A DNA stretch of 64,000 nucleotides, from assembly GCA_017409405.1 (NCBI GenBank), contig JAFQSU010000075.1:6785-70784 (forward strand), given 5' to 3'. The translations under genes were made by a program, and so were the position numbers. Below, piece after piece: positions 1 through 26,102 of this stretch. Source of the DNA: Oscillospiraceae bacterium (lineage in GTDB: Bacteria > Bacillota > Clostridia > Oscillospirales > JAAYXM01). The notes beneath the pieces are model-generated. The model was not told where the DNA came from. It worked only from the letters and a program-made list of their open reading frames with translations, and ran no database searches. Each line of letters starts with the position of its first letter. Position 1 is the first letter of the stretch.

Positions 1-1005
1 CAGCTGTTATCAAATGTTGCTAAAATACTTGTCATATTACTTACAAACAATCTTCTGCTTATGCAACTTTCGTATTGCATATTGTCACTTTTGCAGCTTC
101 TCTACGTATATGTTCATGCAAAACGGAGATATAAATGGTTAAGCATTAAGACGCAGCCGGATTATGAGGCAATTTCTCAAAGGAAATCCGTTCTTGTTCA
201 TCAGATTTCGGGAATGGTATTTAACAACACAGATATTTTGCTTTTGTCCTTTTTATGCGATTTTAGAGTCGTTAGCGTTTATACTATTTATAACATCTTC
301 TTTTCGCAGATTCAGACATTTATTACAAGCATCATTTCGGGTTTCAGTTTTGCTCTCGGTCAGATGTTCCATACTGACAGAACAAAATTTATGAAGGTAT
401 ATGATGTCTATGAAACGTTTTATATTATGGCTACCTTTGTTATTTATACTTTGATGGCGGTATTTTTGCTTCCGCTTATCCAGATATATACAAAAGGAAT
501 AAACGATGCAAACTATACAAATTCGCTTTTGGTAATTCTCTTTGTCGTTATGAACCTCTTGTCAAACGGTAAGCTTCCCTCAAATCATGTTCTTGAGTAT
601 TCGGGCAAATTTGAAGAAACCCGTTCTCATGCAATTTGGGAAATGATAATCAATATTGCAGTTTCAATAGTTTCAATTTTGAAATGGGGAATTTGCGGAG
701 CAATCCTTGGCACGATTGTTGCACTCTTATACCGAGGGACAATGATGATTTATTATTCAAACAGAAAAGTGCTGATGAGAGGAATGTTTCATACATATAA
801 GCTTTGGATAGTAAACGGAGCTGTTTTTGCTGCTTTAATGGCAATCTTTTATGTGGATAGCTTCAGCGGTCTTTCATTTACCAAACTGCTTATAAAAGGA
901 ATTATCCATTCTTTTTGGATAGTGCCTTTGTATATTGGAGTAAACTACATATTTTTCAAAAGGGCATTTAAAAACTTAATTGAATTATGGAGGAATAAAG
1001 CATGA
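1..1005 (+). CDS. Wzx-like polysaccharide flippase (MOP / polysaccharide biosynthesis protein family), 3' portion; the true start lies upstream of the window
   Basis: Frame 1 has no stop from nt 1, so the ORF-track start at 61 is probably internal. The product is almost entirely TM helices. It sits first in a glycosyltransferase operon and has a 4-nt overlap with the next gene. Confidence 0.6.
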   Translation, partial: QLLSNVAKILVILLTNNLLLMQLSYCILSLLQLLYVYVHAKRRYKWLSIKTQPDYEAISQRKSVLVHQISGMVFNNTDILLLSFLCDFRVVSVYTIYNIFFSQIQTFITSIISGFSFALGQMFHTDRTKFMKVYDVYETFYIMATFVIYTLMAVFLLPLIQIYTKGINDANYTNSLLVILFVVMNLLSNGKLPSNHVLEYSGKFEETRSHAIWEMIINIAVSIVSILKWGICGAILGTIVALLYRGTMMIYYSNRKVLMRGMFHTYKLWIVNGAVFAALMAIFYVDSFSGLSFTKLLIKGIIHSFWIVPLYIGVNYIFFKRAFKNLIELWRNKA

Positions 1006-1736
1006 GTATTCCGAAAGTGATTCACTATTGTTGGTTTGGAAAAGGTAAAATGCCGAAGATAGCACAAAAATGTATTAAAAGCTGGGAAAAGTATTGCCCC
1101 GACTATGAAATAATATGCCATAACGAAGATAATTTTGATTTGTCGCAAAATCGTTATATTCGTGAAGCCTATGAGGCGAAGAAATGGGCGTTTGTCAGCG
1201 ATTTTGCAAGGCTAAAGATAATTTATGATAACGGGGGAATTTATTTAGATACCGATGTTGAGCTTATAAAGCCTATTGATGATTTGCTGGAAAACAAGGG
1301 TTTTATGGGATTTGACGAAAAAGGTATTGTTGCAACAGGGCTTGGTTTCGGTGCAGAAAAAGGGAACAAGATAATCGGAGAATTTTTAAAAGATTATGAT
1401 GATATACCGTTCACTTTAGAGGATGGCAGCTTCGACCTTACTCCTTGTCCTGACCGAAATACCGATACCTTGATAAGGCTTGGTATGGACATTAAAAATA
1501 CAAATCAGACTTTTATGGATACGGTTTTTCTTCCCGGAGAGTATCTTTGTCCGATGGATTATTATACAGGGAAAAAGACCATAACGAAAAATACATATTC
1601 CATACATCATTACTGTGCAACGTGGACATCGGATGTAACTAAAAGAACTACACGGATTAAAAGAATTATCGGTGTTAAAATGTATGACAAGCTATACGGC
1701 AAGTTTTTGCATAAATTCAAATGGTTGGAGTGGTAA
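1002..1736 (+). CDS. GT32-like glycosyltransferase (DXD-motif sugar transferase)
   Basis: N-terminal IPKVIHYCWFG and GGIYLDTDVE (DXD) motifs are typical of GT32/capsule-type transferases. The start overlaps the upstream stop. Confidence 0.7.
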   Translation: MSIPKVIHYCWFGKGKMPKIAQKCIKSWEKYCPDYEIICHNEDNFDLSQNRYIREAYEAKKWAFVSDFARLKIIYDNGGIYLDTDVELIKPIDDLLENKGFMGFDEKGIVATGLGFGAEKGNKIIGEFLKDYDDIPFTLEDGSFDLTPCPDRNTDTLIRLGMDIKNTNQTFMDTVFLPGEYLCPMDYYTGKKTITKNTYSIHHYCATWTSDVTKRTTRIKRIIGVKMYDKLYGKFLHKFKWLEW

Positions 1737-1737
1737 T

Positions 1738-3270
1738 ATGCCTGAGCAAGTTATAAATAAAATCAAAAAGAGCGTTTTGCCACAGTGGAAGGTGTGCTTT
1801 ATCTGGTCAATTGTTATGGGACTTTGCGCTCATTTGTATAAAATAACAAATTGGTTGCCAAACTGGGATTCCCTTGTTTTCAGATATGATCCGCAAAATA
1901 TGATTTCAATGGGGAGATGGTTTCTTCCGGTAGTGTGCGCTCCGAGCTCCTTTTATGATCTGCCTTTCGTTGCAGGCCTTATGGCAATCATCCTTCACGG
2001 ACTTGGTGCTGTATGTATCTGCAAAATGTTTGACGTCAGAAAAAATATAACAGCGGCACTTATCGGTGCGACGGTAGCTACATTCCCCACGGTAACATCC
2101 GTGATGATGTATAACTATGTGGCAGACGGCTATGCTCTTGCATTCCTCCTTTCATGTATTGCGGCGTTGCTTCTCACAAAAGACAAGCCTTGCTTTTTGG
2201 GCTCTTTGGTATTGATGGCACTATCTGCAGGGATATATCAGGCATACATAACGGTTACAATAATGCTGCTGCTTTTAAGCTTGATTCTTGATGTGATTTA
2301 CAAAAAGGCAGATCCCCAAAAGCTACTGCTTAAATGCTTAAAGTTTTTGCTGACAGGCGTTTTTGGTGTGGCACTGTATTATTTGGTGATGTCAATTCTT
2401 CTCAAGGTCACGGGAATGACACTTTTGGAGTATCAGGGCTTTAATAGTTCGATATCTTTTAAAGGCATTGACATAGCGGCTGCATTATATGCGTTCAAAG
2501 AGTATTTTATCGGTTATTTCTTTGACTTTTCTAAAGGACCTAATGCGTTTGGCATAATAAACTGCGTTGTGTTTATTATGATTTTTGTCTTGTATTTGAC
2601 AGATATTATTAAGAACAAATTAAGTATTGGCAAAATCCTCATATTACTTGTTTATGTGATTTTGTTACCTGTTGGGGCAAGTGCGCTTAGCTTTCTAAAC
2701 AGCGGCATCGATTATCACAACCTGATGAAAATGGGGTTTTTGGTATTTTATCTGTTTCTTATACTTCAATACGAAAAGTCAGAAATGAAAATCACAAAGC
2801 TAAACGTCATAAAGTCTTGGGCGATCCTTGGTATAGTGGGACTGCTTGTGTTTAATCAAACAATAATTGCAAATGTCAGTTACCATAAGCTGAATATGGC
2901 TTATGAAAAATCTTATGGCACCTTAATCCGTATTGCAGACCGAATCGAACAGACCGAAGGGACAAAAGAATGTGACAGCATTTTGGTTTTAGGCTGTCTG
3001 CCCGAAAGCGAGGCTTACAGTTCAGTTCTGCCACCTGATATGACGGGAACGACAGATGGTTATATTTTGAGGGCAGACGATGAAATAGTCGGTCAAAGTG
3101 TTTTATGCAGTTCATTAAATGATTATTGTGGAAAAAAATATAAATTTATTTCAGGCGAAGAAAAAGCAAATCTTCTGAAAAAAATTGATGCAGACAGCTT
3201 GAATGGCTGGCCCGCAAAAAATTCAATCTCAGTAATTGATAATGTGATTGTTATAAAGCTTGGGGGTTAA
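1738..3270 (+). CDS. GtrII-like glucosyltransferase-domain membrane protein
   Basis: I prefer ATG 1738 (MPEQVINK), 1 nt after the previous stop, over ORF-track 1672. It has the LPNWDSL...MGRWFL N-terminal motif, many TM helices and a soluble C-terminal domain, as in serotype-converting GtrII-type transferases. Confidence 0.6.
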   Translation: MPEQVINKIKKSVLPQWKVCFIWSIVMGLCAHLYKITNWLPNWDSLVFRYDPQNMISMGRWFLPVVCAPSSFYDLPFVAGLMAIILHGLGAVCICKMFDVRKNITAALIGATVATFPTVTSVMMYNYVADGYALAFLLSCIAALLLTKDKPCFLGSLVLMALSAGIYQAYITVTIMLLLLSLILDVIYKKADPQKLLLKCLKFLLTGVFGVALYYLVMSILLKVTGMTLLEYQGFNSSISFKGIDIAAALYAFKEYFIGYFFDFSKGPNAFGIINCVVFIMIFVLYLTDIIKNKLSIGKILILLVYVILLPVGASALSFLNSGIDYHNLMKMGFLVFYLFLILQYEKSEMKITKLNVIKSWAILGIVGLLVFNQTIIANVSYHKLNMAYEKSYGTLIRIADRIEQTEGTKECDSILVLGCLPESEAYSSVLPPDMTGTTDGYILRADDEIVGQSVLCSSLNDYCGKKYKFISGEEKANLLKKIDADSLNGWPAKNSISVIDNVIVIKLGG

Positions 3271-4168: not shown

Positions 4169-4849
4169 ATGCCTTACATCGAAAGTGAAAAGGTTGATGA
4201 AAAAACAAGAGTTAAATTAGAAGCGCTGATTGAAAAATCATATTTGTCTTATTGGAGAAAGAAAAGACTGTTTGATATATTTTTTGCGACTATTATTTTG
4301 CTTGGTTTCCTTCCTCTGATGATAATAATAGCAATTGTCATATGCATTGATGATCCGAGTGCAGGACCGTTCTTCAAGCAAAAAAGAGTAGGACGCCACG
4401 GAAAAGAATTTTATATGTATAAATTCCGCACAATGCGCCCCAATGCAGAAGCACTTTTGGAACAGTTAAAAGATAAGAACGAAATGGAAGGTCCTGTTTT
4501 CAAAATTAAAGAGGACCCCAGAATAACAAGAGTCGGAAAAATCCTCCGAAAATTATCTCTTGATGAATTGATGCAATTCTTTAATGTTTTCAAAGGCGAC
4601 ATGACCTTAGTCGGTCCCAGACCGCCTCTTCCGAGAGAGGTGGAATACTATACCGATTATCAGAAGCTTCGCTTGCTTGTTACTCCGGGAATTACTTGCA
4701 CCTGGCAGATAAGCAAAAACAGAAATGATGTTCCCTTTGAAGAGTGGGTTGAAATGGACCTTGACTACATACAAAACAGAACATTCCCGGGAGATTTGCT
4801 TATAATGCTCAAAACACCTGTTGTTATGCTTAGCGGAACCGGAAGATAG
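4169..4849 (+). CDS. Initiating phosphoglycosyl transferase (small bacterial sugar transferase, PglC / WbaP-C-terminal type)
   Basis: KRLFDIFFA followed by one hydrophobic helix, then YKFRTMRPNAE and LVGPRPPLP motifs. Confidence 0.85.
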   Translation: MPYIESEKVDEKTRVKLEALIEKSYLSYWRKKRLFDIFFATIILLGFLPLMIIIAIVICIDDPSAGPFFKQKRVGRHGKEFYMYKFRTMRPNAEALLEQLKDKNEMEGPVFKIKEDPRITRVGKILRKLSLDELMQFFNVFKGDMTLVGPRPPLPREVEYYTDYQKLRLLVTPGITCTWQISKNRNDVPFEEWVEMDLDYIQNRTFPGDLLIMLKTPVVMLSGTGR

Positions 4850-5996: not shown

Positions 5997-6015
5997 AAGA
6001 AAGGTGGTTTATGTT

Positions 6016-6987
6016 ATGAAAGGATATGCACTAACTACAAAAACCAAGAAAAACATAAGAGTATTGCGACTCTTTTTAATAAGCCTGATTTTTGTTTCGA
6101 TAGCAGCATCTGTTGCGATAATTGGCTGTAATTATATCGGAAATCGTAACTTCAAAGAGACCTTCTATAGTGTAAGCAGCCTTAAGGTGAATAACAAGAT
6201 AAGAATTATTCAGATTTCAGACCTGCATAATTGTTCATACGGAAATGACAATGACAAGATGGTTGACAGAGTCCGAAAATTAAAGCCGGATTTGATAATT
6301 TATACCGGAGATATCATTGATTCAAAAGCAGAAGAAAATGACAAAGCCATAAGTTTATGCAAAGAACTTTCGGATGTTGCACCTTCATATTACATATATG
6401 GAAACAACGAAGTGGAAAAATATTATGATATTCCTCTTACTCAGGAATCACTTGATAAGAAGTTCGGATTTAATGATAATAACAGAGAACCGGATAAGCT
6501 TCTGGAATTGACAGACAATCTTACAAAAAAGCTTGAAGCTTCAGGTGTAAAAGTGCTGAAAAACAGTTCGGACACTGTAACAGTCGGCGCAACCAATGTG
6601 GATGTATACGGTGTGCTTACCTCAAATCCGTCATCCTTCTGGTTATACGCCGGTGAAAGCTTTGATGAGTATATGTATTCAAATGAGAACAACTTAAAAA
6701 TCACAGCAATTCACGAGCCGTTGGTGTTTGAAGAATATTTTCCCGACTCATGGGGCGACTTGATGCTCGCAGGACATAACCACGGAGGTACAGTTAAAAT
6801 ACCGATGCTTGGTCCTCTCTACACACATGACGGAGGATTTCTGCCGGATCGGGGCGGTCATTATGTTGATGGCAGATATGAGGTGCAAGGAAGACCGCTT
6901 ATTATAAGTTCGGGGCTTGAAAACAAGAATATTATGAGAATTAACAATCAGCCGGAAATTGTGATTGTTGATATAAATAAATTTTAA
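6016..6987 (+). CDS. Membrane-anchored calcineurin-like metallophosphoesterase
   Basis: ISDLHN, GDIIDS, GNNE and GHNHGG motifs. A Lys-rich N-terminus plus a single TM helix places the catalytic domain outside the membrane. Start at ATG 6016, after AAGGTGG. Confidence 0.8.
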   Translation: MKGYALTTKTKKNIRVLRLFLISLIFVSIAASVAIIGCNYIGNRNFKETFYSVSSLKVNNKIRIIQISDLHNCSYGNDNDKMVDRVRKLKPDLIIYTGDIIDSKAEENDKAISLCKELSDVAPSYYIYGNNEVEKYYDIPLTQESLDKKFGFNDNNREPDKLLELTDNLTKKLEASGVKVLKNSSDTVTVGATNVDVYGVLTSNPSSFWLYAGESFDEYMYSNENNLKITAIHEPLVFEEYFPDSWGDLMLAGHNHGGTVKIPMLGPLYTHDGGFLPDRGGHYVDGRYEVQGRPLIISSGLENKNIMRINNQPEIVIVDINKF

Positions 6988-7010
6988 TGTCGGAAAGGAG
7001 TGCTGAATAA

Positions 7011-8369
7011 ATGATTTCCTCGCTTTTGCAAAAATTACCTCTTGCTGCAGTGGGACTGTTGCTGGTCATATCGGCTTTGACAATATATTTTCGTTCAAAG
7101 AATGTTACAAAAAGTGAGTTCGTCAAGATATTCAAAAGCACACGATTAGTAGGTGCGGGGATTTTGATTTTTGTGATTCTTATTTCCGGTGTGTTCGGAG
7201 TTTTTAATCATATGAAAGCAAAACACTCTGTTACGGCTGTTGTAGCGCTAAATTATTCGGAGGCGTCTCAGGCTCAGAATTCGAACGGAACAAGATATAA
7301 TATGGCGGAAATAATCTGCGATGAGGTTGTGGAAAAAGCTATCGAAATGGGAGCTTTTGAAAATGTGACCGTAAAACAGTTAAAAAACTGCCTGTGTGTG
7401 TATCCTTATATACAGGGCGATGTGAATGATAAGTCAAATTATCACATTTCAACGGAATTTGTTGTAGAATATCACGCTTCAAAGCACACCGACCACTTAG
7501 ATGCAGAAAATGTAATTACATTGATAACAAGTGCATACAAAGACTACTACATAGAAAAATATACAGATAATTTCAGTGTTATAAACGAAGAGGATAAACC
7601 CGATTACAGTACAATGGAATATATGGACATTGTAACTTATCTGAACAAAGAAACAACTTCTATTTTAAATTATCTCTATGGAATGGCGGAAAAGGGGCCG
7701 AGCTTTGTCACAAAAAACAACACTACATTTCATGCGATAGCAGCAAAGATTCATCAGTTTAAGGAAACACAAATCGAACAAAATTTAAAATCCTTGATAC
7801 TGCAGCACGGAATAGCAAGAAATAAAGGTAACTATATTGACAGGCTTTCTTATCAGAATAAGAATACAGATTTTGACAAGCAAAGAAATAATGCTTCATT
7901 TGGCCTTTGCAATCGTGCAATAGATATGTATTCTGAGGAAATGACAAGAGTTGTTCTTGTCCCTACATGGGATGAAAGCGGAAAATATTATATGGGAAGA
8001 ACAAAAGTCGGTATTGATGAGCTTTCTGTTTTGGCAACAATATTCAGCGACAATGTTGCTTCAAATGAAAAAGAAATAATGGATAATAATCTCGTTATAG
8101 GGAAAATGCAGGGAGCGACCGCAAACACTTCCGCAAACGCAGAGGCAGACGCACTCATTGCATCCATAGATGAAAGCATAGATAACTTTACGGTTGAAGC
8201 TATAAATGCAGGCAGGGAATATTCAAATTACAGAATGAACCAATGTATTGCAGTCAGCATTTCAGGAACTTCTCTGTTTGGTGAGTTAAAGACAATCGTT
8301 ATATTTGCATTTTTATCTTACATTGCGGCGTGCGTTTTTGCAGTTTCCAAAAAGTTTCCGAAGGCATAA
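7011..8369 (+). CDS. PCP/Wzz-like membrane protein (uncharacterised)
   Basis: Two N-terminal TM helices, a ~340-aa hydrophilic middle and one C-terminal TM helix. RBS GGAAAGGAG lies upstream. I recognise no catalytic motif. Confidence 0.45.
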   Translation: MISSLLQKLPLAAVGLLLVISALTIYFRSKNVTKSEFVKIFKSTRLVGAGILIFVILISGVFGVFNHMKAKHSVTAVVALNYSEASQAQNSNGTRYNMAEIICDEVVEKAIEMGAFENVTVKQLKNCLCVYPYIQGDVNDKSNYHISTEFVVEYHASKHTDHLDAENVITLITSAYKDYYIEKYTDNFSVINEEDKPDYSTMEYMDIVTYLNKETTSILNYLYGMAEKGPSFVTKNNTTFHAIAAKIHQFKETQIEQNLKSLILQHGIARNKGNYIDRLSYQNKNTDFDKQRNNASFGLCNRAIDMYSEEMTRVVLVPTWDESGKYYMGRTKVGIDELSVLATIFSDNVASNEKEIMDNNLVIGKMQGATANTSANAEADALIASIDESIDNFTVEAINAGREYSNYRMNQCIAVSISGTSLFGELKTIVIFAFLSYIAACVFAVSKKFPKA

Positions 8370-8395
8370 ACACAAAGGTATATAGGAGGGTAAAG

Positions 8396-10276
8396 ATGAA
8401 GGATTTTCAGATTATGAGATATTTAAAAAAGATTCTGCCTATCATTGTAATTATTTGTGTTTTAGCCACTTATGCAATAAATTTCAAGCTTAAAAATTCG
8501 AATACATTTGTTGCATCGGAAGTTATTCATTACAATGATCCTGCAGCAGAGCAAGGGCTGACTCCGACGGGTGCGAAGCTTGATGTCAATGAAATCAAAT
8601 CATCGGCTGTAATGTCCAAAGTTGTTGACAGAATGGGGCTTACGGGTATTTATTCAGTTGATAGCCTTATATCAAGAATATCAATAACCCCCATCCCCGA
8701 CGAGGATAAGGTTGCACAAAAAGAAGCAAAGCTTGAAGAAGGCGAAGAATATATTTATGAGCCAAGCACATATATTGTTTCTTTTACTGCTACAAACAGC
8801 GAGGGAACAGATTTTGCAAGAACTATCCTCGATGAAACCTTAGACGTGTATTTTGCAGAATACAGTCAGAAATATGTTAATGTTGCCCCTGCAAAAAACG
8901 TCATAGATAATTTAGAAAATGAAAACTATGACTACATTGAAATGGTGGAAATGATAGATGCGGGTATTGACGAAACATTGACTACGTTGTATCAGCGCAT
9001 GGATCAGAACCCTTATTACAGAGCAACAAAAACAGGGGTATCTTTTGGCGATTTGGCAGATGAATTCAGTTATATAAGACACGTCAAGCTTTCTGCACTG
9101 TTTTCAAAGATATATAAATATCAGATAACCAAAAATAAAACAGTACTGATTTCAGACTATACTACAAGAATTGATAACAACAATATATTAAATACAAAAG
9201 AAGAAAGTATTGTAAAAGATACCGTTGCCGTTATTGATGCTTATGTGCAAAAAATGAGAGAATCAGGAAATACGAATATTACTTACGAGTATATTCTTGA
9301 TAATGTGCATGACCGCAATCTGACAGATTCTTTTGCACCGGGGGATCAGACTGTAACATATGATGAGCTTATATATGCCTGGCGCGACCACAACGAAAAG
9401 AGAGAACATTCAGTTATCGATTCTGCATATTGTCAGTATGTTATAGACACATTCCAAAAATGCACCGGTGCGTGTGCAGCTAATGAATGCATGGCATCCG
9501 GACAGACCTGTTCGCAGTTACACAATAAAAACTATGAACAGATTAAAGGTGAAATTGATAAGGAGATCAAATCGCTTGTTTCTGATTTGAGTGCTTTATA
9601 CTCCGCAACCATGAAAACAAACGATGAATACAACGAATATCTTGGTGCAAGTTATATTTCGGTATTATCCTCCGCTTCGGTCAAACCAAGTGTTAACGTA
9701 AATCTCTATACATTGATTGCATTTTTCTTCTTGATAGTCCTTTGCTGCGGCGGTGCGATTGTAATAGGAAGGCTTGGCGATATTATACATTATATTTTCT
9801 ATACTGACCATCTCACAGAGCTTAATAACCGTGCCTACTTTGATAAGTATTTGAAGTCTATGGACAAAAAGCTCTTAGATGACGGGACGGTATACTGTAT
9901 GGTTGACATATCAAACCTTGCAGCTATAAATGCCGAGCATGCACGTCAGACGGGCGACGACATTATAAAAATGTTTACAACCTACTTGAAAGAAACCTTT
10001 GGAAAAACAGATGCAGAGTTTATTTATAACGGAAACGGAAGCTTTGTAATTTTAGCAAAGGACACTGATTATATTACCGTAGAAGATATAATGAGATTGT
10101 TTGGATTAAGGCTTGATGACCGTGAGGATTATAAGAATATCATAATAGAATATAAGGTTGGCATTGCGGAAACATTTAAGGAAAACCAAACGGCAAGAAA
10201 ACTGCTTTCAGAAACAATAAAAAGTAAAAAGGAGTATATTTCCCAGCCACTGAAAAAGGAGGCTTTTTCTGAATAA
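8396..10276 (+). CDS. Polysaccharide co-polymerase (Wzz-like) fused to a C-terminal degenerate GGDEF domain
   Basis: Start at ATG 8396 after AGGAGGG (ORF-track 8330 overlaps the previous gene). Order is a Wzz-like N-terminus (MRYLKKILPIIVIICVLATY), a large ectodomain, a second TM (LYTLIAFFFLIVLCCGGAIVIG), then DHLTELNNRAYF ... VDISNL ... YNGNGSFVIL. Confidence 0.7.
   Translation: MKDFQIMRYLKKILPIIVIICVLATYAINFKLKNSNTFVASEVIHYNDPAAEQGLTPTGAKLDVNEIKSSAVMSKVVDRMGLTGIYSVDSLISRISITPIPDEDKVAQKEAKLEEGEEYIYEPSTYIVSFTATNSEGTDFARTILDETLDVYFAEYSQKYVNVAPAKNVIDNLENENYDYIEMVEMIDAGIDETLTTLYQRMDQNPYYRATKTGVSFGDLADEFSYIRHVKLSALFSKIYKYQITKNKTVLISDYTTRIDNNNILNTKEESIVKDTVAVIDAYVQKMRESGNTNITYEYILDNVHDRNLTDSFAPGDQTVTYDELIYAWRDHNEKREHSVIDSAYCQYVIDTFQKCTGACAANECMASGQTCSQLHNKNYEQIKGEIDKEIKSLVSDLSALYSATMKTNDEYNEYLGASYISVLSSASVKPSVNVNLYTLIAFFFLIVLCCGGAIVIGRLGDIIHYIFYTDHLTELNNRAYFDKYLKSMDKKLLDDGTVYCMVDISNLAAINAEHARQTGDDIIKMFTTYLKETFGKTDAEFIYNGNGSFVILAKDTDYITVEDIMRLFGLRLDDREDYKNIIIEYKVGIAETFKENQTARKLLSETIKSKKEYISQPLKKEAFSE
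9800..10276 (+). other. Degenerate GGDEF-like domain of the PCP fusion (GNGSF in place of GGDEF)
   Basis: Hand alignment to the GGDEF consensus: D-x-LT-x-L-x-NR-x-x-F matches DHLTELNNRAYF, and RYGGDEFvil corresponds to YNGNGSFVIL. The position expected for the RxxD I-site reads KTDA. Confidence 0.6.
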
Positions 10277-10302
10277 AAGTATGAAAGGAGGGCAAATGAA
10301 TA

Positions 10303-11607
10303 ATGGAAAACAAATTTGCACAAGCAACCTTTAAGGTTTACTTTATGGCAGTTGCGGTACTCATGTACTATTTTCTTACAGAAGTAATTAACCTCGGAGT
10401 ATTTGTTACATACCGTCACGCATTTGCCCTCGTCCTTTTTGCATCAGCGTTTTTGGCTTTTTTATATAAGCCCAATATTGCAAGAGGTGCTTCTTCAATA
10501 AAGGCAACTTTTGTATATTGCACCCCACTTATTATAACGGTCTTTGTATCGCTTTTCATATGGTTTATGGAACAAGTTGATACAGAGATTATTGCAAGAG
10601 GGTTGTCCGGTGTTTTTGTATATAATAATATGCTTTCATTTACCCTTGCCGCAGTTGCTTTTTTATATGTATTCGGCGAAAAAGGTATATGGTATAACCT
10701 TGTTGCAATTCTCATTTCAAATATATTGATGCTTTTGACGATTATACTGCAAAACGGAATCGGAAGCTTCTTTTCTGAGTTTATAACTCTTGTTGTGACT
10801 TTTGCGGCAGAAACAGGAGATATTATTGTTCAGGCGGAAATCCATGAACTTGCATTTTGTCTTGGAGCGTATCTGATATATATGTTCTTAAAACCAAAGA
10901 AAGATATTGTGTTTTTTATCTTACTTGGACTTACCTCGTTTTGCTTCCTTACAGCGTTCAAAAGAATTGGTATTATTGCTATTGTAATTGCTTTGGTGTT
11001 TGGTTGGTTTTTAAAACTTGTCGCAAAATTCAAAAAAGATACAGCCATGCGCCTTACCGTGATTTTTTCTGTTATATTGGCAGTGCTGCTCATAGGATAT
11101 GTTGCGATTATAAAACTGGATGTTTTTTCGCTTTTGGAAAAAGCGGGTATAGATACGAGCGGTCGTGTTACCATTTACAATGCCGTAGACAAGTTTTACG
11201 AATTCTCACCGGAGTTTCTGGGCAACGGAATCGGATTTTTAACATATCAGTTAAGCACAAATATGAATGTAGGTGTTTCATCGGTCCACAATGATTTTCT
11301 GCAATATTTTATAGACCTCGGTTTTTGGGGATATATCTTATGGCTTACTTCCATGACCTTAGTCAGGGTATGTTATTTTGGTAAAAAAGGCAAGGTTGAA
11401 AATGGGATCATCGCCCTTGCGCTAAGCTTATACCTTGTTATCGTTTCATCAACCGACAACACTATGAACTATCCGCTTCTTACGACTGTTCTTGCCATTA
11501 TAATGATTGGACATGGATTTGACGAAAAAGTACGAACCTGCGAAATGAAAATGTTTGGGCACATTTCAGATGCTAACAAAGAAACAGAGGTCGGAACAAT
11601 ATTATGA
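10303..11607 (+). CDS. Wzy-like O-antigen polymerase/ligase family membrane protein
   Basis: At least 10 TM helices and a VHNDFLQYFIDLGFWGYILW motif typical of the Wzy_C/O-antigen ligase family. Confidence 0.75.
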   Translation: MENKFAQATFKVYFMAVAVLMYYFLTEVINLGVFVTYRHAFALVLFASAFLAFLYKPNIARGASSIKATFVYCTPLIITVFVSLFIWFMEQVDTEIIARGLSGVFVYNNMLSFTLAAVAFLYVFGEKGIWYNLVAILISNILMLLTIILQNGIGSFFSEFITLVVTFAAETGDIIVQAEIHELAFCLGAYLIYMFLKPKKDIVFFILLGLTSFCFLTAFKRIGIIAIVIALVFGWFLKLVAKFKKDTAMRLTVIFSVILAVLLIGYVAIIKLDVFSLLEKAGIDTSGRVTIYNAVDKFYEFSPEFLGNGIGFLTYQLSTNMNVGVSSVHNDFLQYFIDLGFWGYILWLTSMTLVRVCYFGKKGKVENGIIALALSLYLVIVSSTDNTMNYPLLTTVLAIIMIGHGFDEKVRTCEMKMFGHISDANKETEVGTIL

Positions 11608-12824
11608 AGATATTGATGGTGAATAAATTTCTTTACCCCAGAGGGGGCAGTGAGAGCTATATGTTAAAGCTTTCGCAGGAGCTCAAATCACAGGGGCACG
11701 AAGTCGAATATTTCGGTATGTACGACGAAAAAAACACGGTAGGAAATTCTTTGGGCGTTTATACTGCCAATATGGATTTTCATTCTAAAGGTCTGTCGAG
11801 ATTTCTCTATCCGTTTAAAATAATATACTCAAGGGAAGCGTATAAGAAAATCGGAAAGGTTTTGGATGCTTTCAAGCCCGATATTGTTCATATGAATAAC
11901 ATCAACTTCCAGCTTACACCATCAATTATCTACGCTGTGAAAAAGAGAAACATCCCCCTTGTACAAACAGTTCACGACTATCAGATGATTTGCCCGAACC
12001 ATCTTTTGTATAGCTTTAATGAAACAAAGCCTTGCGACAGGTGTATAAAGGGTTCAAAATGGAATTGCCTTAAATATAATTGTATTCATAATTCAAAAAT
12101 CAAAAGCTTTTTAGGTGTAATTGAGGCAAAGCTGTATTCGTTTTTAAAAACATACAAGATGGTGGATTTATATATATGTCCGAGCAGATTTTTAGAAAAT
12201 AAGCTTTTGGATGCTTCTGATATTTATTCTGAAAAAACATTTACAATACATAATTTTATTGAAAAGAACAATACACCAACTAAAACGGACTGTGGAAATC
12301 CTTATGTTGTTTTTGTCGGCAGACTTTCAAAGGAAAAAGGCGTTGAGCTTATGGCGGATACTGCTTATCTTTTACCCGAAGTTAATTTTGTCGTTGCAGG
12401 AAGCGGCCCTGATGATGAGGTTTTGAAAAATATTCCAAATGTCACCTTAAAAGGGTTTGTTACAGGCAAAGAGCTTACCGAGCTGATGGCAAATGCCAAG
12501 CTTCTTATTGCTCCGTCGGTATGTTACGAAAACAATCCTTTATCCATATTGGAGGCTCATTCTGTGGGCACTCCTGTGGTAACTATGAATCACGGCGGAA
12601 TGGCAGAGCTTGTGGAAGATGAAAAAACAGGTGTGCTGGTTTCAAGTCCAACGCCCGAATCTATAGCCTTGGCAATTAAAAAATGTTTTGATGATGAAGA
12701 ATACTATAAAACGCTTAAAACAAGCTGCGAAACTAAAGGCAAGGATGTAATGGGTGTCACAGAGTATTGTGATATCCTGATGCATAAATATAACAACCTT
12801 ATGGATAAGAGGCGAAGAAATTGA
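11604..12824 (+). CDS. Glycosyltransferase family 4 (GT-B)
   Basis: N-terminal KFLYPRGGSE, C-terminal GRLSKEKG and YENNPLSILEAHSVGTPVV. ATGA overlap with the polymerase gene. Confidence 0.8.
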   Translation: MKILMVNKFLYPRGGSESYMLKLSQELKSQGHEVEYFGMYDEKNTVGNSLGVYTANMDFHSKGLSRFLYPFKIIYSREAYKKIGKVLDAFKPDIVHMNNINFQLTPSIIYAVKKRNIPLVQTVHDYQMICPNHLLYSFNETKPCDRCIKGSKWNCLKYNCIHNSKIKSFLGVIEAKLYSFLKTYKMVDLYICPSRFLENKLLDASDIYSEKTFTIHNFIEKNNTPTKTDCGNPYVVFVGRLSKEKGVELMADTAYLLPEVNFVVAGSGPDDEVLKNIPNVTLKGFVTGKELTELMANAKLLIAPSVCYENNPLSILEAHSVGTPVVTMNHGGMAELVEDEKTGVLVSSPTPESIALAIKKCFDDEEYYKTLKTSCETKGKDVMGVTEYCDILMHKYNNLMDKRRRN

Positions 12825-16004: not shown

Positions 16005-17384
16005 ATGCAAATATTCGAATACCCATACATAATCATAAGCATTTTGGCTTTTTCTTTTATTGCGCTTACTGCCATTGGCATATATTTTGCCGTAAGAGGA
16101 GCGAAAACCGCGAAAGGCAATGAAGAAAAGGACTTTATAAATATAAATAAACTGGAATCCGCTTTTGAGAAATCCGGAAAATTGCGAGAAGACAGATGCG
16201 TTTTTTATGCTAAAGTTTCCTTGGATAATTTCAGAAGTCTTTATTCGGCGCGTCAAACCTTGAATGTTTTTTCTGAAGTAAGGACGGTTTTGTTGGAAGC
16301 TTTTTCCGACGGTGAGGACAGTAATATTTCTATATATGGAGAAAAAAACTTCGTTGTTTTTTCAAAATGGAATATTGAAACTGCACGCAAGAAAATAGAA
16401 AGTTGTTTTGCGGAATTGAACAAATGCCTCTTAAAGCACAGTGCGCTTAATATTATTGACGTCAGAATCGGTATGTATTTCGCCTTTGGGACACAGGTGT
16501 CGCTTGATGATGCAATCGGTCGCGCAAAACAGGCATATTTGCTTGCGAAGGCTGAAAACGTCCCCTATGCCGAATGGAATGTCTCAGGCGGAAAAGCACT
16601 TGAGAAAAAGATAAAAATAGAGAACAACATTGAGAAAGAAATTGATAATAATCGTTTTTTTCTTGAATATCAACCTGTTTTGGATGCAAAAACAAAGAAA
16701 ATAATAGGTGCAGAAGTGCTGTCCCGCTTAAATTCAGAAAGCGAGGGAGTTTTAACTCCCGGCAGTTTTTTGTCTGCGGTTGATTCTGTTGGAATCAATG
16801 ATAAATTTGATTATTATATTTTTGAAAAAAACTGTAAATGGATTTCCAACAATAAAAAACAAAGGGAAGCTTATAAATACACTATCAATTTTTCGAGATC
16901 AACATTGTGTGAACCCCGGTTTGCAGAGAAAATAATAGCTATTGCGCAAAAATACGATTTGAAGTTTTCGTGTCTGGCAGTTGAAATATTAGAGGATAAA
17001 AATATAACCTTCGATGAAAGAAAACAAATGATAGATAATCTGTCAGCTCTTAAAGAAAAAGGTATATCTGTCTTGCTTGATGACTTCGGAAGCGGATATA
17101 CAGCCTTTGGTGATTTGCAAAGCCTTGATATTTCTGTTGTGAAGATTGACAAAACGATAACCCGGAATTCGGTTACAGATACAGGGTTTATTATTTTAAA
17201 AAATATTATTCGTACTGCCGGGGATATTGGTTTTAAAACATTGTGCGAAGGAGTAGAAACGAAAGAACAAGAAGAAGCGGTCATAAAAGCAGGTTGTGAT
17301 TTTCTTCAGGGATTTTACTATTACAGACCTATGCCGGTGGCACAGCTTGAGAAAGTGTTCAATGAAGATTCGGGAGGTGTTTAA
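16005..17384 (+). CDS. Membrane-anchored c-di-GMP phosphodiesterase (degenerate GGDEF-like domain + EAL domain)
   Basis: Start at ATG 16005 after TAGGAG (ORF-track 15951 overlaps the previous gene). One N-terminal TM, then IYGEKNFVVF in place of RYGGDEFvvl. The EAL signature residues are all present: EYQPV...GAEVLSR, INFS, VEILED, LLDDFGSGYT, VKIDK, CEGVET, LQGFYY. Confidence 0.8.
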   Translation: MQIFEYPYIIISILAFSFIALTAIGIYFAVRGAKTAKGNEEKDFININKLESAFEKSGKLREDRCVFYAKVSLDNFRSLYSARQTLNVFSEVRTVLLEAFSDGEDSNISIYGEKNFVVFSKWNIETARKKIESCFAELNKCLLKHSALNIIDVRIGMYFAFGTQVSLDDAIGRAKQAYLLAKAENVPYAEWNVSGGKALEKKIKIENNIEKEIDNNRFFLEYQPVLDAKTKKIIGAEVLSRLNSESEGVLTPGSFLSAVDSVGINDKFDYYIFEKNCKWISNNKKQREAYKYTINFSRSTLCEPRFAEKIIAIAQKYDLKFSCLAVEILEDKNITFDERKQMIDNLSALKEKGISVLLDDFGSGYTAFGDLQSLDISVVKIDKTITRNSVTDTGFIILKNIIRTAGDIGFKTLCEGVETKEQEEAVIKAGCDFLQGFYYYRPMPVAQLEKVFNEDSGGV

Positions 17385-18308
17385 ATGCTGTCCGTAATAA
17401 TTCCTGCATATAATGAGGAATTATCCGTAGAAAGAGCTTACTTTACAATATCGAAGATTTTAAAAGAAGCACAGATTGAAAATGAAATTATTTTTATTGA
17501 TGATGGCTCTACGGATACTACGTATGAAAAAATTAAAAAATTGGCCGATAAAGAAAAAAACATATGCGGACTGCATTTTTCAAGAAATTTTGGAAAAGAG
17601 GCAGCCATCTCAGCAGGACTTGCAAGTGCTTCCGGAGATTCTGTTGTAGTTATTGATTGCGACCTCCAACACCCTCCTGAGAAGATTGTCGAGATGTATC
17701 ATTTATGGCAGGAAGGATATGAAATTGTTGAGGGCATAAAAAAAGCAAGAGGAAAAGAAAGCAAAATGCATGGCTTTGCCTCAAGAAGATTTTATTCCAT
17801 TATCAGTTCGGTAGTTGGATTTGACATGTCAAATGCTTCTGATTTTAAACTGCTTGACCGCAAGGTTGTGGATATACTCAACAGAATTCCGGAAAGAAAG
17901 GGCTTCTTCAGAGCGATTTCATTTTGGGTGGGATTTAACAAAACAACGGTTGAATTCGAGGTTAATGAAAGACTTGAAGGCGAATCAAAATGGTCTGCCA
18001 TAGGACTTTTTAAATATGCTGTTTCAAACATTTCCGCCTACTCAACAGCACCAATGCAGATTGTAACGGTGCTTGGCGTGATGATGCTTATTATTACTGC
18101 TGTTTTCAGCGTTTGGGCACTTATTGATAAAATCCGTGGTATTGCCCTCGAGGGTATGACAACTGTAATCATTATCCTGATATTTATAGGAAGTATCATG
18201 ATGATTAGTCTTGGCATTATAGGATATTATGTTGCCCGTATTTATGATGAAATTAAAGGAAGACCGAAATATATTATTTCTTCATCTTGCAGGAGCAAGG
18301 AGGATTAA
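17385..18308 (+). CDS. GtrB-like GT2 polyprenyl-phosphate glycosyltransferase
   Basis: SVIIPAYNEE, IFIDDGSTD and DCDLQHPPE motifs plus two C-terminal TM helices, the GtrB/DPM1-like architecture. Confidence 0.8.
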   Translation: MLSVIIPAYNEELSVERAYFTISKILKEAQIENEIIFIDDGSTDTTYEKIKKLADKEKNICGLHFSRNFGKEAAISAGLASASGDSVVVIDCDLQHPPEKIVEMYHLWQEGYEIVEGIKKARGKESKMHGFASRRFYSIISSVVGFDMSNASDFKLLDRKVVDILNRIPERKGFFRAISFWVGFNKTTVEFEVNERLEGESKWSAIGLFKYAVSNISAYSTAPMQIVTVLGVMMLIITAVFSVWALIDKIRGIALEGMTTVIIILIFIGSIMMISLGIIGYYVARIYDEIKGRPKYIISSSCRSKED

Positions 18309-23507: not shown

Positions 23508-26102
23508 GTGAAAAAGAATCATTTTTTACGCATCTTTAGCATAGCATTTGTTATTTGTATGGCAGTTGCCTTACTGCCGACCGTTTTTGCGTCAGATACG
23601 GAATATGCGATGTCGGGCATTACGGTGCAGTATTCTTTCGATAAGCAAGATTATCAGTCACTGACAACAGGAAAAGAAATAAGCTATTTAAATACAAGCG
23701 GAAGAGTACAATACGATTCATTTTACGGCACAAAGCCGGTTGTTGATAATTTCGGATGGTTCCGAAATGCGATGAGTCTCTATATACTTGAGGGACAGTA
23801 TTATGCATTCAGAATACGAATTCCGAATGCCGGGTGGTATGCTGTAAGTGTAGGATACAACACTCACAGCAGTGCAACGCAGGGTGAAATGTATATACTT
23901 CCAAGTACAACGACGGACATAGCAGCAACACTAAAAAAGGAAGATCCTGTTCTTACAGTAAACTTCAATGGAGTTGATTCGCTGCAAACAGCAGCAATTC
24001 CGTTTACAACTGATACTAAGCTGTTTAAAGCTGAAGCTGCCGGAGAATATTATCTGGTATGGACGGGGACCGGAACGACAAATGCACAGAATCGCCATTA
24101 TTTACTTCCTCGTCTTGTAACACTCAATGGTGGGGATGAAGCTCCGGTTGTTATGTATGCTGAAAGTGAACTTTCAAAAAATACTATAGATTCAATTATC
24201 GGTGAAACGGCTACAATTTCGACAACAACGGCAAAGATGAGTGATGGTACAGACGCTACAGCCACTGATATTGAAAAGCTTACGTATGTAAGCTCGGACG
24301 TCAATATTGCTACTGTATCAGGTAACACGGTAACTGCAGTTTCAAAAGGCAATGTGAAGATTTACACAATGAGCGGAGATTTGAAAGTTGCCGAAAATGA
24401 AATCACAGTTGAAATGAGTGAGATTGTAAAATCAGGAATTACGGTAAAGTATTCTTTTGATAAGCAAGATTATCAGTCACTGACAACAGGAAAAGAAATA
24501 AGCTATTTAAACACCGGAGAAAGAATAGAGTACGATTCATTTTATGGAACAAAGCCGGTTGTTGATAATTTTTCCTGGTTTCGAAATGCTATGAGCCTCT
24601 ATATACTTGAGGGGCAGTACTATGCATTCAGAATACAAATTCCGAAAGCCGGATGGTATGACGTAAGTGTGGGATATAACACTCACAGCAGTGCAACGCA
24701 GGGTGAAATGTATATACTTCCAAGTACAACGACGGACATAGCAGCAACACTAAAAAAGGAAGATCCTGTTCTTACGGTCAACTTTAATGGAGTTGATTCG
24801 CCGCAAACAGCAGCAATTCCGTTTACAACTGATACTAAGTTGTTTGAAGCTGAAGCTGCCGGAGAATATTATCTGGTATGGACGGGGACCGGAACGACGA
24901 ATGCACAGAATCGTCATTACGTCCTTCCACGTCTCGTAACACTCAACGGCGGGGACAGTGCTGCTCTTATGGGAACTAAGATATCATCCGATAAAAGAGT
25001 TATAGCACTTGCCGGTGAGGAAACGGCACAGGTTACGGCGATAGGCTATCTTTCAACAACAGGTGAGGCTGTAGGTTTTACGTACAGTTCGGAAAACCCG
25101 TCTGTTGCAACAGTTTCTGCAGACGGTACCGTAACTGCGAAGAACGGCGGTGTTGCAAAGATTACTGCTACCTGCACAAACGCTGTTTCAGGAAACAACT
25201 CACTTTCGACCATGATTGTTGTTGATGAACCGTCAAACACCGTTTCTTTCGGTGCAGATTCAAACGTTAACGGCGTAAGTATAACAACAAATATCAGCGG
25301 ATACACACAAGGTGAAGTTACCTCGGTTTCTCTGGAAACACCCGTTACGGTCACTGCGAAAAAAACAGTGGATGACTATGTTTTCCGCGGCTGGGTTCGC
25401 GGCTCCGAAAGTGGAGGAAGATTCATCTCAAATGAGACCGAATACAGCTTCAATGCAATGAAAAACACATACCTTACAGCAATATACACACTCGCGGCAG
25501 ACAAAGAGTATTATGCATGGAACGGCGAGTTCCTCGGTACTGAGGAGCCGGAGGAACCCGAAGTTCTCGGATATGTCTTTGATGAATGGAAGCCGAGTGA
25601 GGATGCTGATGTAACACGTTATGTAGCACAGTATACGCAGGCTGCTGATGAGTACAACGTTACATATAACGGCGTTACGAATAAATACAAATTCAACGAT
25701 AAGGTCGTTCTCGAGTCGAACACAGCGGTATACTGGTACCGAAATGACAAGCTTGTGGACTACGGCACCGAATACACATTCTATGTATGGGATGATGCAA
25801 CGGTAAAGACATCTTCAGAGGGTCATGAGCTTCCGATAGTTGTGCTTGATGCAAAGGTTAAGGACAATAACTTTATGATTGAGTATGACAATGCAGGCAA
25901 GGAAATTGTTGAAGTAGGTATTCTTTTCGGCAATGCAGGTTCGGTACCCACCGTTTCCTCCTGCTATGAGAACATGAACTCACAGCGTGAAAATGTTTCT
26001 CACGGTCAGTTTACGGCACGTGCTGACCGATATACAAATGCGCGCGGATACCTCATATACAGGGACAGCGATGACAGCTTTAAAGTAATATACTCCGAAT
26101 AA
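23508..26102 (+). CDS. Secreted multidomain protein: 2 copies of an unassigned CBM-like module, Big_2-like Ig domains and InlB-B/Flg_new-like repeats
   Basis: Signal peptide ending VFA|SD. Two 174-aa modules lie 273 aa apart. Big_2-like segments (e.g. VSSDVNIATVSGNTVTAVSKGNVKIY). YVFRGW and GYVFDEW repeats. No anchor motif seen. Confidence 0.75.
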   Translation: MKKNHFLRIFSIAFVICMAVALLPTVFASDTEYAMSGITVQYSFDKQDYQSLTTGKEISYLNTSGRVQYDSFYGTKPVVDNFGWFRNAMSLYILEGQYYAFRIRIPNAGWYAVSVGYNTHSSATQGEMYILPSTTTDIAATLKKEDPVLTVNFNGVDSLQTAAIPFTTDTKLFKAEAAGEYYLVWTGTGTTNAQNRHYLLPRLVTLNGGDEAPVVMYAESELSKNTIDSIIGETATISTTTAKMSDGTDATATDIEKLTYVSSDVNIATVSGNTVTAVSKGNVKIYTMSGDLKVAENEITVEMSEIVKSGITVKYSFDKQDYQSLTTGKEISYLNTGERIEYDSFYGTKPVVDNFSWFRNAMSLYILEGQYYAFRIQIPKAGWYDVSVGYNTHSSATQGEMYILPSTTTDIAATLKKEDPVLTVNFNGVDSPQTAAIPFTTDTKLFEAEAAGEYYLVWTGTGTTNAQNRHYVLPRLVTLNGGDSAALMGTKISSDKRVIALAGEETAQVTAIGYLSTTGEAVGFTYSSENPSVATVSADGTVTAKNGGVAKITATCTNAVSGNNSLSTMIVVDEPSNTVSFGADSNVNGVSITTNISGYTQGEVTSVSLETPVTVTAKKTVDDYVFRGWVRGSESGGRFISNETEYSFNAMKNTYLTAIYTLAADKEYYAWNGEFLGTEEPEEPEVLGYVFDEWKPSEDADVTRYVAQYTQAADEYNVTYNGVTNKYKFNDKVVLESNTAVYWYRNDKLVDYGTEYTFYVWDDATVKTSSEGHELPIVVLDAKVKDNNFMIEYDNAGKEIVEVGILFGNAGSVPTVSSCYENMNSQRENVSHGQFTARADRYTNARGYLIYRDSDDSFKVIYSE
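23616..24137 (+). repeat. Unassigned 174-aa module, copy 1 (coding repeat)
   Basis: GITVQYSFDKQDY...PRLVTLNGGD. Hand alignment to copy 2 gives 12 differences in 174 residues with no gaps. Confidence 0.9.
24435..24956 (+). repeat. Unassigned 174-aa module, copy 2 (coding repeat, 819 nt downstream of copy 1)
   Basis: GITVKYSFDKQDY...PRLVTLNGGD. It contains a 98-nt run (24678-24775) identical to 23859-23956. Confidence 0.9.

Follow-up and report, generated by a model that had tools for sequence, protein, structure and literature searches.

We analyzed a stretch of 64,000 nucleotides from an Oscillospiraceae bacterium (assembly GCA_017409405.1, contig JAFQSU010000075.1, positions 6,785 to 70,784), called the window below, and focused on one gene at positions 8396 to 10276 of its plus strand. 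This gene encodes a protein of 626 amino acids, designated here PCP-B, in which a domain resembling the polysaccharide co-polymerases (PCPs) is followed by a catalytically dead cytoplasmic tail of GGDEF fold (GGDEF*), as indicated by the open reading frame (ORF), a Pfam GGDEF match, AlphaFold2 (AF2) models, and Foldseek searches. We have little doubt about this combined description, a PCP joined to a dead GGDEF tail. The same protein was found in 153 species-level genomes and in more than 1300 database proteins; therefore, the feature is not a product of chance.

Architecture of the PCP-B protein

The longest form of the ORF starts at GTG 8330, and the ATG at 8396 (MKDFQIMRYL...) agrees with the N termini of close homologs. 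A full-length AF2 model, built from an input of 98 diverse relatives, had a mean predicted local distance difference test score (pLDDT) of 90.6. The first transmembrane helix (TM1) covers residues 6 to 34 (8411 to 8497, plus strand) by hydropathy and in the AF2 models, and the N terminus is placed inside the cell because K11-K12 precede TM1. The extracytoplasmic PCP domain occupies residues 35 to 434 (8498 to 9697, plus strand), a delimitation based on the AF2 secondary structure, Foldseek, and the Pfam Wzz matches of relatives, and consists of an alpha/beta base (38 to 132) followed by six long helices (137 to 420). The second transmembrane helix (TM2; residues 435 to 461, 9698 to 9778, plus strand, by hydropathy and AF2) runs on as a helix to residue 469 and leads into a compact alpha/beta domain at residues 470 to 620, giving a tail of about 160 amino acids. 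Thus, by hydropathy and AF2, a large extracytoplasmic domain lies between two transmembrane helices and both termini are inside, which is the topology of PCPs. An earlier note on this DNA, made from the letters alone, had proposed this ORF and this order of parts; the ORF was confirmed exactly and the order was borne out, whereas the ectodomain, which the note put at about 430 amino acids, measured about 400.

An exhaustive search with residues 1 to 468 returned a family of 649 clusters at 50% identity, carried mostly by uncultured gut Clostridia. The databases label these proteins only as "diguanylate cyclase" or "GGDEF domain-containing protein," and this naming is misleading.

Since GGDEF matches dominated the Foldseek search with the full-length model, a second model was made from the N-terminal part only (residues 1 to 470; pLDDT, 89.5). 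It shows the alpha/beta base and the long helical hairpin of the PCP fold. The first 12 PDB matches of this model were all Wzc or WzzE (E values of 2.9e-6 to 8e-3, probability of 0.99 to 1.0), including Wzc in several states (E values of 2.9e-6 to 1.5e-4, probability of 1.0) and full-length WzzE (8p3p; E value of 1.3e-3), and FepE and KpsE appeared lower in the list. Among 80 diverse family members (23 to 52% identical), 46 matched Pfam Wzz, with a best E value of 1e-6, and 47 matched GGDEF; one of the relatives, P0215, matched Wzz at 6e-5. The gene context agrees as well, with a Wzy_C gene as the next gene and an assignment of the Wzx flippase that is only probable. Two observations count against the PCP assignment. 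The Foldseek TM-scores to PCP structures were weak, at only 0.18 to 0.29, and the window protein did not match the Pfam Wzz family PF02706 even at an E value of 1 or below; an NCBIfam scan of it likewise returned no Wzz or PCP model. Low TM-scores are expected, because long helical hairpins are flexible or differ in angle, and the similarity is therefore to be read as a match of fold class and not as a close superposition. Membership in the Wzz family is transitive, because the relatives match Pfam Wzz and the window protein itself does not. Of the two domains that had been predicted for Pfam, only PF00990 was thus present in the window protein. Because the fold search, the Wzz matches of the relatives, and the neighboring Wzy_C gene agree, we conclude with high confidence that the N-terminal part is PCP-like, as the earlier note had proposed, and represents a diverged branch.

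The tail contains a degenerate GGDEF domain at residues 469 to 606 (9800 to 10213, plus strand), identified by Pfam, PDB searches, a family profile, and Foldseek. PF00990 matched with an E value of 5.7e-12 and a score of 46.1 bits against a gathering cutoff of 23.8 and was the sole Pfam family found in the window protein. A PDB sequence search of the tail found 4urs at an E value of 3.7e-6, and bona fide diguanylate cyclases (4urs, DgcR, and PleD) were recovered by both sequence and fold searches. Foldseek gave a TM-score of about 0.7 between the tail and isolated GGDEF domains, in line with the nucleotidyl-cyclase fold anticipated for this region, and the family profile matched diguanylate cyclase structures at an E value of about 3e-13. 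The sequence GRLGDIIHYIFYTDHLTELNNRA is present at 9767 to 9835.

The loss of the catalytic motif applies to the whole family. The window protein carries YNGNGSF (10025 to 10045, plus strand) as the degenerate counterpart of R[YF]GG[DE]EF, for which the family consensus is YNG[SG]GQF, and in the family-profile alignment to DgcR, GGEEF stands opposite G[SG]GQF, or GNGSF in the window. Both catalytic acids of GG[DE]EF are missing in the window protein and in all 66 fused relatives that were compared, which are 24 to 52% identical to it in the N-terminal domain. The position of the RxxD inhibitory site (I-site) reads KTDA in the same alignment, as had been noted before, and GKTD in a one-gap pairwise alignment; RxxD is absent in both registers, and the position is variable and partly deleted among the 66 relatives. 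The metal-binding Asp of the "DxD-FK" strand is retained in the window as D504 and replaced by R, Q, or N in most relatives, the Arg preceding the GGDEF motif is replaced by V or I in the family, and most members lack the C-terminal K/R phosphate ligands.

A distinct set of residues is conserved in place of these. The 66 relatives share a signature of D471, (L)PN478-R479, C/F482-D483, and N512 in the first half of the tail and of G516-R517-x-x-G520-D521, F542-x-Y544-N545-G546-x-x-x-F550, and R601-x-L603 in the second half, with N478, R479, N512, R517, G520, D521, Y544, N545, and F550 among the strongly conserved positions. Around the hairpin of the former active site, the conserved residues form a cluster. 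In alignments, N512 and D521 stand at the iN...GD positions of active cyclases; their counterparts in PleD, N335 and D344, are the guanine-contact residues. Among 120 close homologs, the identity of the tail was 85%, compared with 82 to 92% for the other domains, and only the last 16 residues drift (47%). Because the tail is as conserved as the rest of the protein, it is a pseudoenzyme domain under purifying selection, and a decaying relic is ruled out by the same values.

A further conserved element, G458-R459-x-x-D462-[FI]-x-x-Y466 (9767 to 9793, plus strand), lies on the helix leaving TM2, and its sequence was verified. R459 was present in 63 and D462 in 54 of the 66 fused members. The GRxxD[FI]xxY motif co-occurs strictly with the GGDEF* tail and is otherwise kept only in a few near-identical proteins whose tail is missing or split off; diverged stand-alone members and members fused to an EAL domain lack it. 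The motif on this stalk helix is literally an RxxD, while the canonical RxxD within the domain has been lost. That it takes part in nucleotide binding would be speculation.

A conserved five-part module in the locus

The gene lies in a polysaccharide locus that occupies the first 19.3 kb of the window. It begins with the C-terminal part of a 499-amino-acid multi-TM protein, followed by glycosyltransferases, a GtrII-like gene, YdjC, an initiating transferase (Bac_transf), a GT4 glycosyltransferase, a metallophosphoesterase, a 452-amino-acid protein, PCP-B, Wzy, another GT4, three GT2 glycosyltransferases, an EAL protein, a further GT2, and an acyltransferase. The 452-amino-acid protein, PCP-A (7011 to 8369, plus strand), is encoded directly 5' of PCP-B, has no Pfam match, and is a distant, tail-less paralog of the PCP domain of PCP-B. 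BLASTP between the two proteins found nothing, and the paralogy emerged only in a profile comparison, in which PCP-A aligned with the family over 403 columns from TM1 to TM2 (hhalign probability of 99.1%, E value of 8.5e-19). PCP-A has an additional N-terminal hydrophobic segment. On the other side of PCP-B, the 434-amino-acid polymerase (10303 to 11607, plus strand) belongs to the Wzy_C family (PF04932; E value of 3.7e-9). The initiating phosphoglycosyl transferase is located at 4169 to 4849 (plus strand; Pfam E value of 7.2e-64).

The multi-TM protein at 1 to 1005 (plus strand) starts upstream of the window, and its full gene is present in the related loci L010 and L081. Homologs of this protein of about 500 amino acids were found in three of five distant loci at E values of about 1e-25, and one of these distant homologs showed a weak Polysacc_synt/Wzx match (E value of 2e-4). 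The protein is probably a Wzx-type flippase.

The metallophosphoesterase gene (6004 to 6987, plus strand) encodes a membrane-anchored calcineurin-like protein with a single N-terminal TM helix, which matched Pfam Metallophos and was YaeI/LpxG-like by NCBIfam. All the free Metallophos proteins have one N-terminal TM helix and a positively charged N terminus. P0215 (917 amino acids; L090, 10001 to 12754) combines Wzz, GGDEF*, and Metallophos in one chain, in which an additional TM helix separates GGDEF* from Metallophos, and L091 encodes a GT4-TM-Metallophos fusion (6542 to 8542). On the basis of these three arrangements, the phosphoesterase domain is predicted to lie outside the cell and hence not to be an analogue of a cytoplasmic phosphotyrosine phosphatase. 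An undecaprenyl diphosphate-linked glycan or a phosphodiester in the polymer are candidate substrates.

The arrangement is retained over a wide range of divergence. The whole locus was syntenic in 80 species-level metagenome-assembled genomes of Clostridia from animal and human guts, with PCP-B 70 to 93% identical; the paralog was present in 72 of these loci, Metallophos in 66, Wzy in 73, and the EAL gene in 62, and the absences fell mostly on short contigs or near contig ends. We also sampled five distant loci in which PCP-B is only about 26 to 40% identical. All five had a tail-less PCP paralog directly upstream of PCP-B, a Metallophos domain, either fused or encoded by its own gene, and a Wzy_C gene. 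The distant paralogs matched both the family hidden Markov model (1e-23 to 1e-58) and the 452-amino-acid protein of the window (1e-15 to 1e-52). Thus, the Wzx-like protein, PCP-A, PCP-B with its tail, the outward-facing Metallophos protein, and Wzy constitute a conserved five-part module. Because of the tandem tail-less paralog and the conserved metallophosphoesterase, the feature is a multi-part module and not a single odd fusion. In L091, the PCP-B part (458 amino acids) and the GGDEF* tail (149 amino acids, from the conserved CD motif) are two genes separated by 40 nucleotides (10001 to 11866), which may reflect a genuine split, a frameshift, or a fault of the assembly.

Other genes in and around the locus bear on the polymer. 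In L081, which encodes an identical PCP-B, a second EAL gene, GtrA, and a hexapeptide acetyltransferase lie just upstream of the region corresponding to the window. A Gtr-like set comprises the GtrII-type membrane glycosyltransferase (1672 to 3270), a GtrB-like GT2 with C-terminal TM helices (17385 to 18308), and this GtrA (L081, 147 to 551); because such a set serves side-chain glycosylation, extracellular decoration of the polymer is suggested. Downstream of the locus, at a distance of about 7 kb, an 864-amino-acid Big_2 protein (23508 to 26102, plus strand) adjoins a 2396-amino-acid protein with three C-terminal SLH domains as well as Big_2 and He_PIG (26172 to 33362, plus strand), and a pyruvyl transferase occurs in L090. 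SLH domains bind secondary cell-wall polymers. Given the nearby SLH proteins and the L090 pyruvyl transferase, the locus may make an SLH-anchoring wall polysaccharide.

Tyrosine kinase, phosphatase, and c-di-GMP genes

In Gram-positive loci of this type, a bacterial tyrosine kinase (BY-kinase) and a PHP phosphatase would be the expected partners of a PCP, and the earlier note had seen neither. A Pfam scan of most window ORFs of at least 150 amino acids, with a few ORFs between 49.7 and 63.5 kb left out, found no BY-kinase and no PHP phosphatase, in the locus or elsewhere in the ORFs scanned. A regular expression for the Walker A/A' motifs gave zero matches in the window and 121 related loci (1.96 Mb in total), a crude negative. 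The note had also pointed to the upstream sequence as a place where a conventional pair might lie. Neither gene was found within about 1.6 kb upstream in L081, or, in a relative with 71% identity, in the 10 kb that precede the flippase-like gene and that hold a phosphoglucomutase, RsmF, and an ATP synthase operon. The C-terminal BY-kinase with Walker A, A', and B motifs and a Tyr-rich tail that defines PCP-2a proteins is likewise missing from PCP-B, whose tail is GGDEF by Pfam, PDB, and Foldseek.

Genes for the turnover of cyclic di-GMP (c-di-GMP) are associated with the family in several ways. Among the glycosyltransferases of the locus, a 459-amino-acid EAL protein with one TM helix is encoded at 16005 to 17384 (plus strand; Pfam EAL E value of 2.3e-56). 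It matched the EAL domain of MorA at an E value of 1e-31 with the EVLSR, N, EILE, DDFGSGY, KID, EGVE, and QG motifs intact and, as judged from these motifs, is likely an active c-di-GMP phosphodiesterase. The second EAL gene, just upstream of the window, encodes 278 amino acids (L081, 1 to 133). In the sister clusters P0251 and P0265, an EAL domain follows TM2 in place of GGDEF*; P0265 (L087, 10001 to 12295) keeps all EAL motifs, and the EAL domain of P0251 is partly degenerate. Acetivibrio sp. MSJd-27, which has been cultured, carries P0265 (WP_216424180.1) and may offer an experimental handle. L089 encodes on the minus strand (1934 to 3244) an initiating transferase with an N-terminal HD-GYP domain whose HD and HHHERYDGNGYP motifs are intact, a possible further c-di-GMP input into a Wzy-type pathway, and L091 is flanked by PAS-GGDEF-EAL and PAS-GGDEF genes. 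A six-frame motif scan of the window found no GG[DE]EF cyclase. In the EAL protein of the locus, a candidate GGDEF remnant (IYGEKNF) that precedes the EAL domain was not supported, with an hhalign probability of only 5% against the tail. A small gene for an Hpt (histidine phosphotransfer) protein stands at the start of the distant locus L085 (1018 to 1368) and may represent a different regulatory input. Altogether, the c-di-GMP connection of the family is recurrent and suggestive. The EAL genes in and next to the locus, the sister proteins with EAL, and the HD-GYP transferase lend indirect support to the second-messenger control that the earlier note had suggested.

The tail-less paralog, the metallophosphoesterase/Wzy module, the sister EAL proteins, and the EAL phosphodiesterase of the locus go beyond the earlier note.

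Known systems and possible modes of action

The closest structural parallel is Wzc, a PCP-2a protein of E. coli K30 (7nhr, 9r62, and 9r68). Like PCP-B, it carries TM1, a helical ectodomain, TM2, and a folded cytoplasmic domain on one polypeptide; it was the best structural match to the N-terminal model, and it partners Wzy in a Wzx/Wzy pathway. In contrast, the cytoplasmic domain of PCP-B has the GGDEF fold and not that of a P-loop BY-kinase, with no Walker motifs and no Tyr-rich tail; the host is Gram positive, so that there is no Wza partner; a tandem tail-less paralog is present; and the identity is about 10%. The PCP-1 proteins Wzz, WzzE, and FepE share the two TM helices, the alpha/beta base, and the long helical hairpin, and Pfam Wzz is matched by relatives of PCP-B, but PCP-1 proteins have no cytoplasmic domain and serve O-antigen or enterobacterial common antigen in Gram-negative bacteria. 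CapA/CapB and CpsC/CpsD (PCP-2b) are comparable as Gram-positive adaptors of Wzy-dependent systems in which regulation is expected on the cytoplasmic side of TM2. However, CapA/CpsC-type PCPs are short (about 230 amino acids), activate a separate kinase through a tail of about 30 residues, and have a PHP or low-molecular-weight phosphatase alongside, whereas the ectodomain here has about 400 amino acids and no kinase or phosphatase was found in the locus or the related loci examined.

The membrane-anchored degenerate GGDEF receptors PelD, PssE, and YdaK bind c-di-GMP through the RxxD I-site. They resemble PCP-B in placing such a domain within a polysaccharide machine, with c-di-GMP turnover genes nearby, but they keep RxxD and serve synthase-dependent systems, whereas PCP-B has no RxxD and would act on a Wzy-type system through its PCP domain. 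The analogy with PelD and PssE drawn in the earlier note therefore fails on their defining feature, and an I-site receptor of this type is ruled out by the family-wide absence of RxxD. Pel has also been described in Gram-positive bacteria (PMC7112168). LapD (3pjw and 6pwk), a structural match to the tail, likewise has two TM helices, an outside domain, and a dead GGDEF, and it signals across the membrane; unlike PCP-B, it binds c-di-GMP at its own EAL domain and controls a periplasmic protease, and in PCP-B no EAL is fused and the outside domain is a PCP. EpsV/EcpK and HfsA/HfsB (PMC12004946) are phosphorylation-independent PCPs for which a dead-enzyme cytoplasmic partner has been proposed as a scaffold; in them it is a dead kinase in Gram-negative hosts, and here it is a fused dead diguanylate cyclase in Clostridia. 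Some PCP-2 proteins require such BY pseudokinase scaffolds (PMC12004946). The PCP, the degenerate GGDEF domain, and Wzy are each already known, and their combination and the module are new. A literature search that reached few subscription journals turned up no account of a PCP fused to GGDEF or EAL, which agrees with the earlier note that no characterized example was known.

The explanation that we prefer is as follows. PCP-B would be one subunit of a two-paralog co-polymerase with PCP-A and, together with the Wzy-family polymerase encoded next to it, would serve a pathway of the Wzx/Wzy type that makes a conserved heteropolysaccharide of the cell envelope in uncultured gut Clostridia. The two paralogs may form a mixed ring around or beside Wzy, in which the dead GGDEF tail would occupy the place of the Wzc kinase ring or of the BY pseudokinases and, as a scaffold or regulatory module on the cytoplasmic side, determine how the ring assembles or how active it is. 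The state of the ring may be coupled to c-di-GMP, either because the tail itself binds a guanine nucleotide or because the EAL phosphodiesterase encoded in the locus, which is anchored in the membrane, docks onto it. Elements that might serve in binding are the base-contact Asn and Asp that persist from the former active site and the GRxxD motif specific to the tail. A regulatory or scaffold role of the tail in place of a kinase seems fairly probable. Control of the co-polymerase by c-di-GMP is plausible, and responsiveness of the tail itself to c-di-GMP appears possible but somewhat doubtful. Taken as a whole, this is the best explanation available to us, and we hold it tentatively, with the case for it falling slightly short of the case against.

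Several points weigh against this explanation. A BY-kinase is possibly encoded elsewhere in the genome. The hetero-oligomerization of PCP-A and PCP-B is inferred from their conserved adjacency. Three of the five distant loci (L085, L087, and L090) had no c-di-GMP gene besides PCP-B within 10 kb, so that the EAL association is recurrent and not universal. Finally, the tail lacks a canonical I-site family-wide and has lost the phosphate and metal residues of the active site (A-site), so that no known binding mode applies to it.

The first alternative is a pure scaffold pseudoenzyme that would bind no nucleotide and would serve only for protein contacts in the cytoplasm, such as dimerization of adjacent protomers or docking of glycosyltransferases or the initiating transferase; the nearby EAL genes would regulate something else. 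The missing I-site, the lost metal and phosphate ligands, the distant loci without other c-di-GMP genes, and the precedent of the BY pseudokinases EcpK and HfsB on PCP-2 proteins (PMC12004946) are all consistent with such a scaffold. However, the guanine-contact Asn and Asp stay conserved, sister proteins swap the tail for EAL, a c-di-GMP-binding domain, and EAL or HD-GYP genes are repeatedly embedded in related loci. We consider a pure scaffold rather unlikely.

In a second alternative, signals would run from outside to inside: the ectodomain would report the state of the polymer or wall and the GGDEF* tail would modulate the locus EAL protein, so that polysaccharide assembly feeds back on c-di-GMP. 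The EAL protein is membrane anchored and conserved with catalytic motifs intact, the PCP-EAL fusion P0265 also appears catalytically intact, and the possible GGDEF remnant before the EAL domain could pair with the tail. Nevertheless, that remnant has little standing after the hhalign comparison, and distant loci retain the tail with no EAL gene nearby, which makes feedback of this kind improbable.

The degenerate A-site might instead bind GTP, pGpG, or (p)ppGpp without catalysis, tying polymerization to the energy or stringent status of the cell. The GEDEF domain of Caulobacter PdeA binds GTP. The conservation of N512 and G520-D521, aligned with the base-binding iN...GD, and the clustering of conserved residues around the former active-site hairpin would suit a guanine-nucleotide sensor. 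However, most members have lost the metal Asp, the Arg in front of GGDEF, both acidic residues, and the K/R phosphate ligands at the C terminus, so that high-affinity triphosphate binding looks unlikely, and we rate such a sensor as improbable. Lastly, the above-threshold Pfam match and the database name "diguanylate cyclase" might suggest that the protein is an active cyclase whose sensor domain is unusual; this reading is effectively refuted by the family-wide loss of GG[DE]EF, with GNGSF or G[SG]GQF and neither catalytic acid in all 66 fused relatives.

Returning to the preferred explanation, its furthest-reaching form would be a third way of regulating Wzx/Wzy assembly, in which the BY-kinase/phosphatase cycle is replaced by a hetero-oligomeric PCP-A/PCP-B whose pseudo-cyclase tail, with a relocated GRxxD, senses c-di-GMP directly or via EAL and whose partner is an outward-facing metallophosphoesterase. 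In this complete form we regard it as doubtful. Most capsules and O-antigens, as well as many wall polysaccharides, are products of Wzx/Wzy-dependent pathways. To our knowledge, a tyrosine kinase/phosphatase cycle acting on PCP-2 proteins is the only well-described post-translational control of these pathways. Their post-translational regulation is considered incompletely understood, and control by c-di-GMP is characteristic of synthase-dependent systems (2025 mBio, PMC12802240). A dead GGDEF domain in the position of the tyrosine kinase hints at an undescribed control of this common pathway, and it widens the idea of pseudoenzyme scaffolds for PCPs. The family of 649 clusters, with a dead GGDEF or an EAL domain fused to a co-polymerase, provides a testable entry to second-messenger control of Wzy-type polymerization, and it points to two uncharacterized partners, a paralogous PCP and an outward-facing metallophosphoesterase, in abundant uncultured gut Clostridia. 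If the third way is true, a second messenger would control a Wzy polymerase of Gram-positive gut bacteria at the post-translational level.

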